Assembly: GCA_018814355.1 (NCBI GenBank)
Contig: JAHIZT010000053.1
Location: forward strand, 798-64,797
Reading direction: 5' to 3'
Source: Thermoplasmatota archaeon
GTDB lineage: Archaea > Thermoplasmatota > Thermoplasmata > UBA10834
Length of the DNA stretch: 64,000 nt
The translations under genes were made by a program, and so were the position numbers. Positions within the stretch are counted from its first letter, which is position 1, and the number at the start of each line of letters is the position of its first letter. A model generated the notes under the pieces. That model searched no databases, was not told the DNA's origin, and saw nothing but the letters and a program-made list of their open reading frames with translations. Shown piece by piece: positions 18,637 through 22,903 of this stretch.

Positions 18637-19812
18637 TCAGCCCATGCAGGAAACGATCTCTCGGGCGAACTCCGAGGTTCCATAGGCACGGCTGCCAGCT
18701 CGCCGAGCAAGATCTTCGGTAAGGACTCCTTCGGCCAATACCTTCTCAAGAGAACTGACTATCAGACGACCAGCGCTCTCAAGTCCTATGTGCTCGAGCA
18801 TCAACGCGCCGGATAGGATGAGTGAGGACGGGTTGGCGATGTTCTTGCCCGCATACTTCGGGGCGGTCCCATGGACTGCCTCGAAGACAGCTGTGTCATC
18901 TCCGATGTTAGCACCGGGTGCCAACCCCAGCCCGCCGATCTGGGCAGCACAGGCATCCGCGAGATAGTCTCCATTGAGGTTCGGGGTCGCCAAGATGGAG
19001 TACTCATCGGGCCTTGTCAGTATCTGCTGGAACATGTTGTCCGCTATGCGGTCGTTCATCACAATCCGACCAGGGGAAATTCCACCTGCGAGCTTCAGCT
19101 CGCTTTCCGGCACGACCGAATCCGCAAACTCGAACCTTGCGAGTTCGTACCCCCAATCCCTGAAAGCGCCCTCCGTGAACTTCATGATGTTGCCCTTGTG
19201 GACCAAGGTCACGGACTTCAGTCTCTTCTTGATCGCATATCTGACTGCAGCTCGGATGAGGCGCTTGGAAGCGAACTCCGAGATGGGCTTGATTCCGATG
19301 CCGCTATCCGGCGAGAGTTCGATCCCCATCCTCGACTTCAGAAACCCGATGAGCTCGAGAGCCTCCTTAGAGCCGCTCCTCCACTCGATGCCTTTGTAGA
19401 CGTCCTCTGTGTTCTCCCGGAAGATCACGATGTTCATCTTCTGAGGTTCCTTGACAGGACTCGGCACACCCTCGAAGTATCTTACTGGCCTGACTGAACA
19501 ATAGAGGTCCAAGGCCTGGCGGATGGACACGTTGAGGCTTCTGATCCCTCCACCAATCGGCGTTGTCAGTGGTCCTTTTAGCGAGATGCCGCGATCTCTG
19601 ATCATCTGAAGCGTCTTCGACGGCAGCCACTCCCCCACTGCCTTGAATGCCGCCTCACCTGCCAACAATTCCTCCCAGATCAGAGTGGCCGTGCCTTCAG
19701 TGGCTTTGCCGACGGCAGCGTCTATGACTGATCGGGCTGCAGCCATTATGTCGGGTCCGATCCCGTCGCCTGGGATGAACGGGATTCGAATCTGCTTGAT
19801 CTCGCGATTCAT
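18637..19812 (-). CDS. icd: Isocitrate dehydrogenase (NADP-dependent, prokaryotic Icd type)
   Basis: Strong match to the E. coli Icd phospho-loop and active site ([26 protein letters not shown]; [22 protein letters not shown]; [28 protein letters not shown]). Confidence 0.75.
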
Positions 19813-19831
19813 TCTTCCGTTCTCCTACATA

Positions 19832-20338
19832 CTATTCCAGCGCGAATCCGCCGTGCTTCTTCAGATGAGGAATCAAACCGCCGTCCTCAAGCAATACTTG
19901 CATCGTCCTCGGAATAGGAGACGTTCTGGCGGTCTGCCCCGTGCGTACGTTGATGACTTCTCCCTTGTCGAAGTCCACCATTATCTCATCGCCCTCGGCT
20001 ATCCAGCCAGTATCACATTCAATCAAGGGAAGGCCCACGTTGAACGAGCTCCTGTAGAATATGCGCGCGTACGACCCCGCAATCACCGCTGCAACTCCGG
20101 CGGCCTTCAGAGCACGCGGTGCCTGTTCCCTGCTTGAGCCGCACCCGAAGTTCCTGCCCGCGACCACAAAGTCGCCCTTCGTGACCTTTGAGAAGAACTC
20201 AGGATCGATATCCTCCATAACGTGCTTCGCAAGCTCGTTCATGTCATCGATCTTGAACTTGTACCTTCCTGAGATGATGTAATCCGTGTTGATGTCGTCG
20301 TTGGGGACGAACCTGTGCGCTTTCCCAGTCAATTTCAT
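19832..20338 (-). CDS. 3-isopropylmalate/homoaconitate dehydratase small subunit (LeuD family, archaeal type)
   Basis: LeuD/aconitase swivel-domain pattern ([14 protein letters not shown]). Confidence 0.7.
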
Positions 20339-20350
20339 CGCATCGCCCTC

Positions 20351-21604
20351 TCAGATCTCCCTCGGATCGGTGATCTCGCCCTTGATGGCCGAGGCAGCCA
20401 CGGTCTCCGGCGAGGCCAAGTATATCCCCACATCCTTGTTGTTCCCCATGCGTCCCTTGAAGTTCCTGTTGGCGGTCGAAATGACATTCTCGCCATCAGA
20501 TGGAATCCCCGCATGAGTTCCCACGCAAGGACCGCAGCCAGGCGTGACAATTGCTGCGCCAGCCTTCAGAAGCTGAGATATGATCCCACGATCCATCGCG
20601 CTGAGGAGTATGCTCCTTGACGCCGGGGCAACGATCATCCTCACACCTGTTCTTATCTGATGACCTTTCAATACTCTGGCAGCTGCCTCGAGGTCGCTGA
20701 TTCGTCCGTTGGTGCAGGTCCCAAGGAAGGCCTGTTGAATCGCTATGCCTCTGAGATCAGAGGCATCTACGACTTTGTCCACGGAGTGAGGCTTCGCCAC
20801 TTTTGGGACGAGGTCGGATGCATCGAACTCAAAAACCTTCTCGTAAGTGGCGCCGTCGTCACTCGAGACAGCATTATCGGCCCGAAGACCGCGTTGGGAG
20901 AGCCATTCCGCGGTCTTCGAGTCGAATCCAAAGGGACAGAACTTGGCCCCCATCTCGACGGCCATGTTTGCTATCGTGAATCTTCCATCCATGATGAGCG
21001 AATCGATCGCTTCTCCTGAGAACTCGACGGACCTGTATGTCGCCCCATCGGCAGTCAGAGAGCCAATGACCTTGAGCGCGAGGTCCTTCGCTCCTATGCG
21101 GTCCGCAAATCCTCCGGCGACCTTGATGGAGAAGCTCTCAGGGACCTTGAACCACAGCTTGCCTGTGAAAGCCGCAGCAGCCACATCCGCCGAGCCGAGT
21201 CCTGTCGAGCACGCGTTCAGAGCGCCGTATGTGCATGTGTGGGAATCTGCTCCGATTGCGAGGTCCCCTGGCAACACATAACCGCCCTCAGGCACGACTT
21301 GGTGGCAGACGCCGTCCCCCACATCGTGGATTGGGATGGACCTTGTCCGTGCGAAATCCCTGATCTTGAAGTGTATCTTGGCGACTTCGACCGATGGGCA
21401 CGGAGAGTTGTGGTCGATCACAACCGCCATGCCTCGCTTGGTCTTGGGAGCCGAGAAGCCCAGGCTCTCGAGCTCCCTGATCATCATGGTGGATGTGCCG
21501 TCCTGGGACATGCAGAAGTCGACCGAGGCGACCACAATGTCCCCGGCTCTGCACTCAGCTCCTGAGTGCACAGACAACACCTTCTCTGCAATCGTTTGAT
21601 CCAT
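20351..21604 (-). CDS. 3-isopropylmalate/homoaconitate dehydratase large subunit (LeuC family, archaeal type)
   Basis: Aconitase family with Fe-S Cys ligands (GTCTNGR, PGCGPCVG). Confidence 0.75.
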   Translation of the reverse strand: MDQTIAEKVLSVHSGAECRAGDIVVASVDFCMSQDGTSTMMIRELESLGFSAPKTKRGMAVVIDHNSPCPSVEVAKIHFKIRDFARTRSIPIHDVGDGVCHQVVPEGGYVLPGDLAIGADSHTCTYGALNACSTGLGSADVAAAAFTGKLWFKVPESFSIKVAGGFADRIGAKDLALKVIGSLTADGATYRSVEFSGEAIDSLIMDGRFTIANMAVEMGAKFCPFGFDSKTAEWLSQRGLRADNAVSSDDGATYEKVFEFDASDLVPKVAKPHSVDKVVDASDLRGIAIQQAFLGTCTNGRISDLEAAARVLKGHQIRTGVRMIVAPASRSILLSAMDRGIISQLLKAGAAIVTPGCGPCVGTHAGIPSDGENVISTANRNFKGRMGNNKDVGIYLASPETVAASAIKGEITDPREI

Positions 21605-21607
21605 CCG

Positions 21608-22903
21608 TCAACTCCTCTTGAAGCCATGACCTACGTTGGAATCCGTCGTTGCGACATTCCTTCCAGACGCCGCCTGGAAGATCGCCATGAACTCATCGTC
21701 CGTCAGGTTCCTCTTTTTTGTCTCCCCGATGCGGCAGACCTCCAGCCTCATAGTCTCCATTGCGTCAGGAGAAGCGGAGAGTCCCAGCTGGTCTAGCTTG
21801 TGCTTTATCGAGGCCTTCCCAGAGTGCTTACCAAGAACGATCTTCCTCGTGATCCCTAGCATGCCCGGGTCGAACGCCTCGTAAAGGCTCGGGTTCTTCA
21901 GTATGCCGTCGACATGGATGCCCGATTTGTGGGTGAACATGTTCTCCCCCACGATAGGGTGGTTGAGTGGAATGCCCAAGCCGGATGCCTTCTCAACATG
22001 TTTGCACAGCGGGAGTATGTGCTCTGCGTTGTACTTCTCGATCCCGTAGTGGCTGTGGAGATTCATCACGAACACTTCGAGGGATACGTTTCCCGCCCTC
22101 TCGCCGAGACCATTTACCGTGGTCGAGACCCAGAGCTTCCTGTCCTTGAACTCGGCTGCAGCCTCGCATGCTGCGAGTGCGTTCGCAATCGCCAGGCCGA
22201 AGTCGTTGTGCGCGTGAAACTCTACGTCGATGTCGACCGACGACATCACCGAGCGTATCAACCTCTTTGACTTCGCGGGCGTGAGGACTCCCACCGTGTC
22301 ACAAATCCTGAACCTGTCCCCGCCGGCCTTCTTTCCAACGGATGCGAACTCGATCAGGTAGTCTATCGATGTGCGCGTGGCGTCGCCTGCGTTGAAGCAG
22401 ACATAGACACCTTTGCCTTTCGCGAAGCTCACGCAATCTGCGAGCTTCTCAAGCTGTTGTGCGCGTGTGATCTTGAGCTTCTGCTCGAGGGCCATGTCAG
22501 AGGTGTCCGTGGATATGGAGACAGCGTCCACTCCGTGCGCGATGGAATCTGCAACATCGGCCTTGACCATCCTGTTCCATCCCATGATCGACATCCTGCT
22601 AGTGATTTCATTCAATAGTTCAGCAGTCTTCCTGTCGCTGTCGTTGTAGGTCGCAAACGTCTCGAGCTGCTCGATCCCCATCTGCTCAAGCTTCCTAGCG
22701 ATCTCCAGCTTCTCATCCATCGTGAACGAGATGCCAGGCATCTGCTCGCCATCACGGCAAGTCGTGTCAACAATGCAGATATCGCCGAGAATCGGATTGC
22801 GGGCCTCAGCATGAGCTGGGAAGATAGACCCTGCTGCTCCTTCGTCCACGCACGATCGAACGCCTTTCTCACATCCACTCTTAGTGCTCATCAACAACAC
22901 CAC
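21608..22903 (-). CDS. LeuA-family 2-oxoacid:acetyl-CoA C-acetyltransferase (2-isopropylmalate / citramalate / homocitrate / Re-citrate synthase family)
   Basis: DRE-TIM metallolyase motifs (DTTCRDGEQ, HAHNDFGLA). Substrate specificity cannot be assigned from sequence alone. Confidence 0.75.
   Translation of the reverse strand: MVLLMSTKSGCEKGVRSCVDEGAAGSIFPAHAEARNPILGDICIVDTTCRDGEQMPGISFTMDEKLEIARKLEQMGIEQLETFATYNDSDRKTAELLNEITSRMSIMGWNRMVKADVADSIAHGVDAVSISTDTSDMALEQKLKITRAQQLEKLADCVSFAKGKGVYVCFNAGDATRTSIDYLIEFASVGKKAGGDRFRICDTVGVLTPAKSKRLIRSVMSSVDIDVEFHAHNDFGLAIANALAACEAAAEFKDRKLWVSTTVNGLGERAGNVSLEVFVMNLHSHYGIEKYNAEHILPLCKHVEKASGLGIPLNHPIVGENMFTHKSGIHVDGILKNPSLYEAFDPGMLGITRKIVLGKHSGKASIKHKLDQLGLSASPDAMETMRLEVCRIGETKKRNLTDDEFMAIFQAASGRNVATTDSNVGHGFKRS

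Follow-up and report, generated by a model that had tools for sequence, protein, structure and literature searches.

What does an archaeon make with four genes that are arranged much like a leucine module and that close with an isocitrate dehydrogenase? The question is raised by a 64,000-nucleotide stretch of DNA from an uncultured Thermoplasmatota archaeon (the window, by which we mean the whole stretch analysed), in which a synthase of the LeuA/homocitrate-synthase family, a LeuC-like and a LeuD-like hydro-lyase subunit and an E. coli-type NADP-dependent isocitrate dehydrogenase (IDH) are tightly packed in the same direction on the minus strand. The reading that we favour from sequence comparison, with a probability of roughly 0.7, is that the operon would provide a Re-citrate synthase, an aconitase surrogate and an IDH, which together would convert acetyl-CoA and oxaloacetate to 2-oxoglutarate.

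The resemblance of the four co-directional genes to a leucine module, which the first-pass annotation had pointed out, is borne out by the open reading frames, by gaps between the genes of 3, 12 and 19 nt and by the Pfam domains, which are HMGL-like and HCS_D2 in the synthase, Aconitase in the large subunit, Aconitase_C in the small subunit and Iso_dh in the dehydrogenase. The ATG at 22891 is likely the true start of the synthase and matches the NCBI call (Table 1). About 35 species-level Thermoplasmata metagenome-assembled genomes (MAGs) have the four genes in the identical order, wherever the contig is long enough, but since the wider surroundings (Lhr, enolase, the cluster, NhaP and TrxR) are syntenic across all these MAGs as well, gene order inside the lineage tells little by itself. 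No canonical citrate synthase or aconitase was found in 649 kb of related DNA.

Table 1. Positions of the four genes and of two elements upstream of them
Feature	Positions	Strand	Length	Remarks
Synthase	21608..22891 from the likely ATG (ORF 21608-22903)	-	427 aa	
Large subunit, LeuC/HacA-like	20351..21604	-	417 aa	aconitase-family [4Fe-4S] hydro-lyase; proposed aconitase large subunit
Small subunit, LeuD/HacB-like	19832..20338	-	168 aa	
NADP-dependent isocitrate dehydrogenase, E. coli / A. fulgidus type	18637..19812	-	391 aa	
Palindrome GGGCAATTGACC	23181..23192	-		301 nt upstream of synthase ATG; candidate operator
Conserved block GACACAATGGTAATAATAC	23112..23130	-		about 62 nt downstream of palindrome; candidate promoter core resembling a TATA box

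The dehydrogenase and the synthase

The dehydrogenase had been called Icd-type and not LeuB, and indeed the loop quoted in support of this is present in the 391-residue translation. With 526 bits it clears the cut-off of 490 set for the NCBIfam NADP-IDH model NF005425, and its score against Archaeoglobus fulgidus IDH (2IV0) is 500 bits, as opposed to at most 168 bits against homoisocitrate dehydrogenases, at most 153 bits against IPMDH and just 99-114 bits against LeuB. On the isocitrate-homoisocitrate dehydrogenase model, whose cut-off is 680, it likewise reaches only 137 bits, and on the AksF models (cut-offs 500-540) only 188-216 bits. Furthermore, 32 orthologs all keep the isocitrate and metal ligands of E. 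coli Icd (S113, N115, R119, R129, R153, Y160, K230, D283, D307 and D311) as well as K344 and R292, and 31 of them keep Y345 (E. coli numbering). Ser113 and Asn115 bind the gamma-carboxylate of isocitrate in E. coli Icd, whereas LeuB has Gly and Leu there. By its scores and ligands the dehydrogenase is thus a true IDH, and its type disfavours the Aks-type elongation and citramalate routes that had been offered as alternatives.

Within the DRE-TIM Claisen-condensing family the synthase, judged by domain content and family models, is not a LeuA, since the LeuA_dimer regulatory domain (Pfam) is missing and the protein stays below every curated NCBIfam cut-off for LeuA/IPMS, CimA, NifV and homocitrate synthase (HCS). 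Its best characterised BLASTP matches are the type-b Re-citrate synthases, with H. modesticaldum HM1_2993 and C. difficile AksA 45% identical to it (291-296 bits); Teth514_0415 is 45% identical as well. It scores 243 bits against S. acidocaldarius HCS, 206 against NifV and 186 against LeuA. In H. modesticaldum, deletion and complementation experiments back the role of HM1_2993 as Re-citrate synthase, and the C. difficile AksA is listed among the confirmed Re-citrate synthases (PMC12016533). A neighbour-joining tree makes the synthase clade sister, with 62% bootstrap, to representatives of the 'SNE' group, which bears the type-b Re-citrate-synthase motif, and another analysis did not resolve the placement; a position beside the type-b enzymes is weakly supported. 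The representative of the next cluster at 50% identity shares 46% of its residues with the synthase, and on these comparisons the clade is a separate, isolated and new subfamily.

The signature residues of the synthase are DTTCRDGEQ, GWNR, STD129TSD, CFN167AG169DATR and FTHKSGIHVDG. Motif mapping indicates that the synthase differs at three pocket residues which in HCS hold the C5 carboxylate of 2-oxoglutarate (Trp in place of His103, Cys in place of Arg163 and Asn in place of Ser165), and the Glu and Ser that IPMS has at HCS positions 163 and 165 are likewise Cys and Asn. When 150 representatives from the wider family are compared, only the synthase clade and the SNE group have Asn at the Ser165 position, and this residue separates type-b Re-citrate synthases from NifV and HCS. 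The likeness to the type-b enzymes comprises the GWNR motif, the pocket Asn (x-N-x-[E/G]-D) and the lack of a LeuA regulatory domain.

The synthase differs from them, however, in an N-terminal extension of ~35 residues, in a 6-residue insertion past the HxH metal motif, in reading HKSGIH for HESGIH and in its score on the NifV model, which is 382 bits and below the cut-off, while the bacterial type-b enzymes pass with 495-509 bits. It differs furthermore at the active site, since the usual catalytic Glu at the end of strand β5 (Glu167 in S. pombe HCS), conserved in type-b enzymes, is Gly (G169) in the synthase clade, and an acidic residue (D129) has appeared at the matching position on the neighbouring strand β4; in the AF2 model the two lie at the ends of these adjacent strands. 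Outside the clade, none of the 150 representatives has this β4-Asp/β5-Gly pair, and by this comparison the arrangement is new. We infer that the catalytic base has moved from β5 to β4 in this clade. In LeuA and HCS the Glu is considered to act as general base, and because type-b Re-citrate synthases keep it and the synthase does not, the chemistry could differ; other subfamilies, however, also depart from Glu here and have Gln or Met.

The two-subunit hydro-lyase

The only models whose cut-offs the large subunit clears are the generic subfamily ones, NF001614 and TIGR02086; it reaches 428 of the 611 bits required by the LeuC equivalog and 419 of the 550 required by the HacA equivalog. The small subunit passes only TIGR02087, a generic archaeal small-subunit model. 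By sequence both resemble the archaeal IPMI/homoaconitase models (520 bits) more closely than the aconitase model PRK07229 (335 bits). The cluster-ligand cysteines C297, C357 and C360 and the motifs GADSHT and STANRNF are invariant in 35 orthologs of the large subunit. The pair has its two-subunit architecture, Fe-S ligands and GSSRE motif in common with the M. jannaschii IPMI MJ0499/MJ1277 and homoaconitase MJ1003/MJ1271 and with P. horikoshii PH1724, and against such methanogen and Pyrococcus LeuCD-type isomerases the small subunit scores 118-148 bits (PDB) and the large one 419-428 bits (curated models). Unlike these it misses both equivalog cut-offs, and its genomic partner is an IDH instead of LeuB or AksF. 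The substrate loop of the small subunit, GRYKFK, is moreover one residue longer than those of MJ1277 (ARYLVY), MJ1271 (GPYLRT) and PH1724 (GRYNLT); it is clade-specific, ends in [K/R/S] and is invariant in 38 orthologs. We propose that the two subunits act as an aconitase, with no residue-level rule tying the loop to citrate.

The proposed route and its alternatives

The synthase would form citrate from acetyl-CoA and oxaloacetate, with the Re-face stereochemistry that enzymes of the LeuA/homocitrate-synthase family typically show, and the LeuCD-type [4Fe-4S] hydro-lyase would convert citrate by way of cis-aconitate to (2R,3S)-isocitrate, the hydroxyl being shifted to the acetyl-derived carbon as LeuCD and HacAB do on their own substrates. 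The NADP-IDH, identified at the sequence level, would then yield 2-oxoglutarate by oxidative decarboxylation, for use in glutamate synthesis and transamination. The whole route would amount to a round of 2-oxoacid chain elongation with oxaloacetate as substrate.

Such an operon layout is already known in some anaerobic bacteria, and here the active site of the synthase is unusually rewired. The aksA-acnB-icd operon of C. difficile matches in its three functions, in their order and in being a single operon (PMC3510511), but the present host is an archaeon and the proposed aconitase consists of two subunits, one LeuC-like and one LeuD-like, where C. difficile has a single polypeptide. D. mccartyi, which relies on a Re-citrate synthase and whose leuA-leuCD-leuB operon is separate, likewise carries two-subunit aconitase-family genes directly upstream of an IDH gene, there a validated NADP-IDH (gene layout compared in PMC4720418 and its supplement); its synthase, however, is 32% identical to ours (167 bits) and sits outside the aconitase-IDH operon, and malate dehydrogenase and fumarase genes follow the IDH, neither of which does so in the window. 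A metagenomic SNE-type synthase gene (L087) overlaps a 633-aa aconitase-family gene by 4 nt. The 'type-a' Re-citrate synthase of C. kluyveri and S. aciditrophicus is of the same superfamily and would catalyse the identical reaction if the hypothesis holds, but it belongs to a deeply separated branch (27% identity, 107-110 bits) with the pocket motif R-C-H-x-E-D. These bacterial parallels, the Icd residues and the 45% identity to type-b enzymes all favour the Re-citrate synthase/aconitase-surrogate reading that the first-pass annotation had put forward.

The altered active site, with its Gly for Glu and new Asp, could instead mirror a new reaction, in which the synthase and the LeuCD-like pair use another 2-oxoacid/acyl-CoA pair, the product lies outside the TCA cycle and the IDH is merely co-transcribed. 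Such a notion gains from the unique β4/β5 pair, the isolation of the clade, the unique small-subunit loop and the want of a fitting curated equivalog model for the synthase and both subunits, and among the alternatives it survives best. We nevertheless consider it unlikely, since the simplest explanation for an operon with a strictly isocitrate-type dehydrogenase at its end is that isocitrate is supplied to it; the pocket Asn and the Trp-Asn residues are furthermore common to the synthase and the type-b enzymes, and there are bacterial precedents for combining these three functions.

A module of homocitrate synthase and homoaconitase, with the Icd-like enzyme as homoisocitrate dehydrogenase, would serve Aks-type elongation or the alpha-aminoadipate route to lysine, the latter known from Thermus, Pyrococcus and Sulfolobus. 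It is suggested by 6KTQ, the homocitrate synthase of S. acidocaldarius, which among solved structures is nearest to the synthase (239 bits), by the HKSGIH motif, which HCS shares and which is HESGIH in LeuA, by the 176 bits of the small subunit on the methanogen HacB model and by the JGI label 'homocitrate synthase NifV' on synthase homologs; type-b Re-citrate synthases are likewise routinely mis-annotated as homocitrate synthase. The dehydrogenase makes this quite improbable, being far below the isocitrate-homoisocitrate and AksF cut-offs, passing the NADP-IDH model and keeping the isocitrate-specific Ser113 and Asn115. In addition, the synthase lacks the His103/Arg163/Ser165 triad of lysine-pathway HCS and misses the HCS and NifV cut-offs, the small-subunit loop lacks the Arg-Thr of the homoaconitase loop, and the window holds no LysW/X/Y/Z/J/K-like genes. 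The closest relatives, RBG_13_57_23 and RBG_19FT_COMBO_56_21, are assigned to the order UBA10834, relatives from which reportedly lack many of the core marker genes for methanogenesis, and a need for coenzyme B is therefore doubtful.

Still less probable is a leucine or isoleucine module, made up of an isopropylmalate or citramalate synthase and LeuCD beside a functionally unrelated IDH, which the lineage-wide synteny could hold in place. The top-scoring NCBIfam match of the synthase is indeed an IPMS subfamily model, NCBI names both hydro-lyase subunits 3-isopropylmalate dehydratase, and among PDB entries 3VBA, a subunit of the M. jannaschii isopropylmalate/citramalate isomerase, matches the small subunit best. 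The synthase however misses the IPMS (390 bits, cut-off 517) and CimA (176 bits, cut-off 450) models widely, besides lacking LeuA_dimer and the IPMS pocket residues, and the small-subunit loop is not of the YLV type. Furthermore, neither the cluster nor the window contains a LeuB-type dehydrogenase and no ilv genes lie near the cluster, while the IDH begins 19 nt past the small-subunit stop on the same strand.

The least probable reading is a reversed oxidative TCA cycle for CO2 fixation, in which the IDH would carboxylate 2-oxoglutarate and the synthase cleave citrate: the organism appears anaerobic (an HdrA-like/MvhD fusion is present in the window) and some anaerobes are known to run a Si-type citrate synthase in reverse, but nothing here points to direction, no reversal of a Re-type synthase was found in the literature searched, and the window contains no 2-oxoglutarate synthase or other rTCA genes.

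Elements upstream of the synthase

The operon has a promoter-like block of its own and a conserved palindrome, and it is therefore probably under a dedicated DNA-binding protein, with the palindrome as candidate operator. The family consensus of the palindrome is GGTCAWWTGACC. Of 37 loci that bear the cluster, 33 have a palindrome with at most two mismatches from this consensus upstream of the synthase gene. In 22 Thermoplasmata loci, which span up to about 17 kb, an exact match to the pattern is present just once, in every case upstream of the synthase gene, and the rest of the locus has none. The window likewise holds a single site; upstream of the unclustered relatives L039 and L040 the palindrome is absent. 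The conserved block, with the family consensus [AG]ACACAATGRTRAT..., would be the promoter, and both its sequence and its spacing are kept across loci whose flanks have diverged.

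The four-gene cluster and its dehydrogenase

We propose, with a probability of about 0.7, that the four co-directional genes of the cluster encode a Re-citrate synthase, a LeuCD-type aconitase surrogate and an Icd-type isocitrate dehydrogenase (IDH), which together would lead from acetyl-CoA and oxaloacetate by way of citrate and isocitrate to 2-oxoglutarate. This was the reading preferred in the first-pass annotation and it is the best supported one, by the similarity of the synthase to the type-b Re-citrate synthases (the group of Clostridium difficile AksA, HM1_2993 and Teth514_0415), by what appears to be a true IDH and by bacterial precedents, and the coordinates, gene order and phospho-loop reported there all match the open reading frames and their translations. 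The spacing inside the cluster is 3, 12 and 19 nt, and the NCBI gene call, like the alignment of upstream regions, puts the start of the synthase at the ATG at 22891, which gives a protein of 427 aa.

Coordinates of the cluster, its upstream elements and other features of the window
Feature	Position	Strand	Domains or remarks
Synthase (ORF)	21608-22903	minus	HMGL-like + HCS_D2 (Pfam)
Large subunit, 417 aa	20351-21604	minus	Aconitase (Pfam)
Small subunit, 168 aa	19832-20338	minus	Aconitase_C (Pfam)
Dehydrogenase, 391 aa	18637-19812	minus	Iso_dh (Pfam)
Leader	22892-23110	minus	~200 nt before synthase start
TATA-like block [AG]ACACAATGRTRAT...	23112-23130	minus	~62 nt beyond palindrome
Palindrome GGTCAWWTGACC, window copy GGGCAATTGACC	23181-23192	minus	upstream-region alignment
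Syntenic block	16248-27448
HdrA-like FAD/4Fe-4S protein, 815 aa	30694-33141	minus	C-terminal MvhD/FlpD domain
Giant ORF, 1753 aa	43945-49206	minus	CARDB; C-terminal double zinc ribbons
Zinc-ribbon protein	49263-50279	minus	DZR/zinc-ribbon modules
tRNA, 101 nt	58410-58510	minus	Rfam match 56.5 bits
Protein of 726 aa	58633-60813	plus	DnaA-type AAA+; DUF835
Zinc-ribbon protein	60830-62500	minus	DZR/zinc-ribbon modules

The dehydrogenase is predicted to be a genuine isocitrate dehydrogenase of the prokaryotic homodimeric E. coli Icd type. With 526 bits it exceeds the cut-off (490) of the curated NADP-IDH model NF005425, is 52% identical to E. coli Icd and scores 500 bits to the A. fulgidus IDH (2IV0) and 429 bits to E. 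coli Icd, as against at most 168 bits to homoisocitrate dehydrogenases and at most 153 bits to IPMDH, and it lies hundreds of bits short of the cut-offs of the models for LeuB, AksF, homoisocitrate dehydrogenase and tartrate dehydrogenase (leuB 127 bits, cut-off 353; AksF 188-216, cut-offs 500-540; iso_homocit_dh 138, cut-off 680). Aligned with E. coli Icd and LeuB, the window enzyme and 32 orthologs keep each of the ten isocitrate and metal ligands (S113, N115, R119, R129, R153, Y160, K230, D283, D307 and D311 in E. coli Icd numbering), the Ser and Asn at positions 113 and 115 being Gly and Leu in E. coli LeuB. Among the residues for NADP, K344 and R292 do not vary, and 31 of the 32 orthologs have Y345. 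The earlier description of the enzyme as Icd-type rather than LeuB is borne out by the model scores and by Ser113 and Asn115, and since all the isocitrate ligands are kept and the NADP-IDH model is passed, the substrate supplied to it should be isocitrate.

Family and active site of the synthase

The synthase contains PF00682 and PF22617 as its only Pfam domains, that is, a TIM barrel followed by HCS_D2 as in the type-b Re-citrate synthases, and the LeuA_dimer regulatory domain is absent from its Pfam matches. It stays under every curated cut-off for the LeuA, CimA, NifV and homocitrate synthase (HCS) models and is thus predicted to be none of LeuA, CimA, NifV and the lysine-pathway HCS. Compared with known and proposed Re-citrate synthases (Table S1 of PMC12016533, machine-read text in which small errors are possible), it is nearer to the characterised type-b enzymes than to HCS, NifV, LeuA or CimA.

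Scores of the synthase against curated models and, by BLASTP, reference enzymes
Compared with	Identity	Bits	Cut-off
IPMS subfamily model (best IPMS)		390	517
NifV model TIGR02660		382	463
HCS model TIGR02146		308	414
CimA model		176	450
Thermoanaerobacter Teth514_0415, H. modesticaldum HM1_2993, C. difficile AksA	45%	291-296
S. acidocaldarius HCS	38.5%	243
NifV	35%	206
LeuA	35%	186
D. mccartyi Re-citrate synthase	32%	167
C. kluyveri and S. aciditrophicus Re-citrate synthases	27%	107-110

Among these references, HM1_2993 is required for normal growth on acetate, as found by deletion and complementation, and was concluded to be a Re-citrate synthase, and the C. difficile enzyme is given as confirmed (PMC12016533). 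The type-b enzymes themselves lie above the NifV cut-off (495-509 bits), from which it follows that Re-citrate synthases lack a curated model of their own and are routinely misnamed. There is likewise no curated model for a LeuCD-type aconitase, and homologs of the cluster therefore carry annotations such as 'homoaconitate hydratase', 'homocitrate synthase NifV' and 'isopropylmalate dehydratase'. By such misannotation uncultured anaerobic archaea could appear to be without citrate synthase and aconitase, or to have a spurious leucine or lysine module.

In a search of 1.84 billion representatives of 50%-identity clusters, from which 150 were taken for the wider family, the whole clade of the synthase falls into one cluster (P0138, 72% identity) and a fragment, the next representative outside it being 46% identical. 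The first-pass annotation had looked to a phylogeny to place the synthase. In a bootstrapped neighbour-joining tree the synthases of cluster-bearing loci group at 100% and are joined at 100% with two stand-alone relatives, L039 and L040, and all of these are sister, with 62% bootstrap, to two representatives that carry the type-b motif S-N-E; the branching relative to the C. difficile/HM1 group is not settled by neighbour-joining, be it with few references or in the larger bootstrapped tree. The window synthase and its relatives appear to form a distinct subfamily.

The active site was mapped with the numbering and residue roles of the S. pombe HCS, and all 16 of the HCS residues used fall on the expected letter once an offset of 5 residues is applied. 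Of the ligands for the metal and the 2-oxoacid, Arg43, Thr197, His224 and His226 are kept unchanged and Glu44 is kept as Asp, which is also found in LeuA and NifV; the second-subunit His of SGIH is kept too. The triad His103/Arg163/Ser165, which we presume to hold the distal C5 carboxylate of 2-oxoglutarate, is Trp/Cys/Asn in the window synthase, Trp/Ser/Asn in the type-b Re-citrate synthases and Trp/Ser/Gly in NifV. The corresponding motifs GWNR and CFN place Trp-Asn at the His103 site and Asn at the Ser165 site, and among the 150 representatives only the S-N-E sequences and this clade (C-N-G) have Asn in the Ser165 column. The combination of Trp-Asn and Asn may therefore mark the type-b family, which is not an established rule, and it is a reasonable reading that the pocket Asn would occupy the room left by the shorter oxaloacetate.

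The window synthase thus resembles the type-b enzymes in domains, overall similarity and pocket, but it differs from them at the end of β5. The residue concerned is Glu167 of the S. pombe HCS, which we take to be equivalent to the proposed general base Glu218 of M. tuberculosis LeuA and Glu155 of the yeast HCS. This Glu of the type-b pattern x-N-x-E-D is missing from the window synthase (CFNAGDATR) and from every cluster-bearing locus, its place being taken by Gly. Of 120 close homologs, 119 share this Gly, and all 120 carry an acidic residue at the end of β4 (Asp in 116, Glu in 4), a position that is elsewhere Gly, Ala, Ser or Pro and acidic in no other representative among the 150. An AlphaFold2 model with pLDDT >90 over most of the barrel puts β4 at 123-129 and β5 at 163-169, so that two adjacent parallel strands end in Asp129 and Gly169. 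The catalytic carboxylate would accordingly seem, on this model, to have been shifted from β5 (Glu to Gly) to the neighbouring β4 (Gly/Ala/Ser to Asp/Glu), and if so the swap offers a clean and testable instance of a TIM-barrel enzyme in which a catalytic residue has changed its place. In other subfamilies among the 150 representatives the Glu position is Gln or Met, so that the β5 Glu is not universally required; Met (FSAMDATR) occurs in L050, a locus of Ca. Syntrophoarchaeum butanivorans, and in the representatives P0162, P0163, P0172 and P0185, and Gln in NifV-like proteins of Chlorobi and Bacteroidales. The stand-alone relatives L039 (7986-9245) and L040, 56-57% identical to the window synthase, keep the β5 Glu (CFNAED) and are without the β4 Asp and the operon partners, L039 having no related neighbours; they may preserve the ancestral state or be a paralog with another function.

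Hydro-lyase, precedents and alternatives

The two subunits encoded between synthase and dehydrogenase are predicted to form a two-subunit hydro-lyase of the aconitase family with LeuCD/HacAB architecture. The [4Fe-4S] ligands C297, C357 and C360 and the motifs DSHT and NRNF are kept in all 35 large-subunit orthologs, and the small subunit carries the motif GSSRE. The only models passed are generic archaeal IPMI/homoaconitase subfamily models (NF001614, 526 bits, cut-off 385; TIGR02086, 520 and 410; TIGR02087, 184 and 109), and the equivalogs are missed (LEU2, 428 and 611; HacA, 419 and 550; leud, 168 and 246; HacB, 147-176 and 230), as is the aconitase model PRK07229 (335 bits against 612). 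The substrate loop of the small subunit (YKFK, ending in K, R or S) is invariant across the clade and one residue longer than the loops of MJ1277 (ARYLVY, isopropylmalate/citramalate isomerase), MJ1271 (GPYLRT, homoaconitase) and PH1724 (GRYNLT), and both the IPMI loop YLV[MY] and the homoaconitase loop YLRT are absent from it. Alignment of this loop with MJ1277, MJ1271, PH1724, E. coli LeuD and domain 4 of AcnA gave no assignable substrate, because the GRY motif is common to AcnA and IPMI-type subunits. The proposed role as an aconitase acting on citrate and isocitrate is suggested by context, namely the adjacent IDH and the precedents in D. mccartyi and C. difficile.

In C. difficile aksA-acnB-icd is transcribed as one operon that is repressed by CcpA (PMC3510511), and in D. 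mccartyi, where a two-subunit aconitase-family enzyme is encoded directly upstream of a validated NADP-IDH, a Re-citrate synthase encoded outside that operon is in use next to a separate leuA-leuC-leuD-leuB operon (PMC4720418 and supplement). The window cluster joins these two arrangements in an archaeal host. Furthermore, in the metagenomic locus L087 an S-N-E-type synthase, 43% identical to that of the window, overlaps a 633-aa aconitase-family gene by 4 nt. Such operons of distant organisms are stronger evidence for functional coupling than the order synthase, large subunit, small subunit and IDH being kept in ~35 species-level MAGs, since synteny within the lineage is weak evidence where the entire neighbourhood is equally conserved.

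The operon is of a kind already known, the Re-citrate synthase/aconitase/IDH branch of anaerobes, in a variant that would combine a separate subfamily of synthases, in which the catalytic carboxylate has apparently been relocated, a LeuCD-type two-subunit enzyme in the position of aconitase and a conserved putative operator. The literature searched mentions a single case of archaeal Re-citrate synthase, in Ignicoccus, and describes neither such an operon in archaea nor this cluster nor the TCA cycle of UBA10834 or RBG-16-68-12 Thermoplasmata. The 649 kb covered by the window and related loci (43 sequences) gave no match to gltA or acnA and no second leu set. A more far-reaching proposal, which we put forward only tentatively, is that the operon is the sole route from oxaloacetate to 2-oxoglutarate here, with all three steps performed by paralogs of leucine and 2-oxoacid-elongation enzymes and without Si-citrate synthase or canonical aconitase, that the synthase is a mechanistically distinct Re-citrate synthase with its carboxylate moved from β5 to β4, and that neither a Re-citrate synthase nor a LeuCD-type aconitase had been assigned to a gene in archaea before. 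If the Re-citrate synthase, aconitase surrogate and Icd reading holds, the cluster would provide a gene-level candidate for the archaeal Re-citrate synthase and an oxidative TCA branch made wholly of 2-oxoacid-elongation paralogs, and it would bear on the kinship of that branch with the pathways to leucine, lysine and coenzyme B.

The altered active site of the synthase would also permit a different, uncharacterised reaction by the synthase and the LeuCD-like pair, and such a reaction is allowed by the data, but it would leave the IDH with no supplier of isocitrate. Operation of the enzymes in reverse is possible in principle, but it finds no support in the present data. A homocitrate/alpha-aminoadipate or Aks-type elongation module does not fit the isocitrate-specific dehydrogenase, a synthase from which the HCS triad is absent, a window free of lysW-type genes or a lineage that is non-methanogenic, and the AksA/AksDE/AksF-like set offered as an alternative in the first-pass annotation is disfavoured by the low AksF scores and the kept isocitrate residues of the dehydrogenase. 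A leucine module, or the citramalate route likewise suggested there, does not fit either, since all the curated models are missed (CimA, 176 bits against 450), there is no LeuB in the cluster or the window and an IDH follows only 19 nt past the small subunit. We thus retain the Re-citrate synthase, aconitase surrogate and Icd reading.

Upstream region, neighbourhood and host

Some 430 non-coding bases separate the synthase from enolase, which in all syntenic loci is the immediate upstream gene on the strand of the cluster. When this region is aligned across species, two conserved elements stand out amid diverged DNA, a palindrome and a TATA-like block, which 33 of 37 related loci have at the equivalent position; GTC/GAC half-sites recur in the stretch that separates the two. 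In its exact form the palindrome is present in one copy per locus in 22 Thermoplasmata loci, the copy in the window being likewise single; in those loci it always stands 5' of the synthase and never elsewhere, and it is absent upstream of L039 and L040. This points to a promoter of the operon's own and a dedicated candidate operator, and the conserved palindrome offers a handle on a putative archaeal regulator of carbon and nitrogen metabolism. Within the leader, the segment CGGGCATAGGGnnCCGTGGTA (CGGGCATAGGGAACCGTGGTA) is common only to the closest relatives (loci L004-L009 and L042). A riboswitch or other cis-regulatory RNA in the leader was considered and for now rejected, the RNAalifold fold being weak (-9 kcal/mol) with covariation of ~0, and Rfam gave no match in this region.

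The syntenic block around the cluster is shared by ~35 Thermoplasmata species (L004-L045) with synthase identities of 57-90%, and contains an Lhr helicase, the enolase, the four genes, a convergent Na+/H+ exchanger and a thioredoxin-reductase-like gene. The contig belongs to a MAG of an uncultured Thermoplasmatota (GCA_043817215.1, GCA_018824625.1). The closest named relatives (RBG_13_57_23, RBG_19FT_COMBO_56_21, UBA10834 and UBA9653) all belong to the order UBA10834, a non-methanogenic lineage close to Methanomassiliicoccales (bioRxiv 10.1101/2020.03.09.984617). An intron-containing tRNA and the gene content of the window are consistent with an archaeal host; the tRNA was missed by ARAGORN and its intron is presumed. 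The fusion of an HdrA-like protein to an MvhD-type domain is typical of electron-bifurcating complexes and occurs here within a reportedly non-methanogenic lineage; it suggests an anaerobic host.

Archaea are expected to use Orc1/Cdc6 and not DnaA. In the 726-aa protein, residues ~324-584 form a DnaA AAA+ domain of true bacterial type (PF00308, 165 bits; B. subtilis DnaA 8BTG, 210 bits), unexpected for an archaeon, and DUF835 stands at the C-terminus, where DnaA has its DNA-binding domain. The DZR/zinc-ribbon modules of the giant 1753-aa ORF recur in two more proteins of the window.
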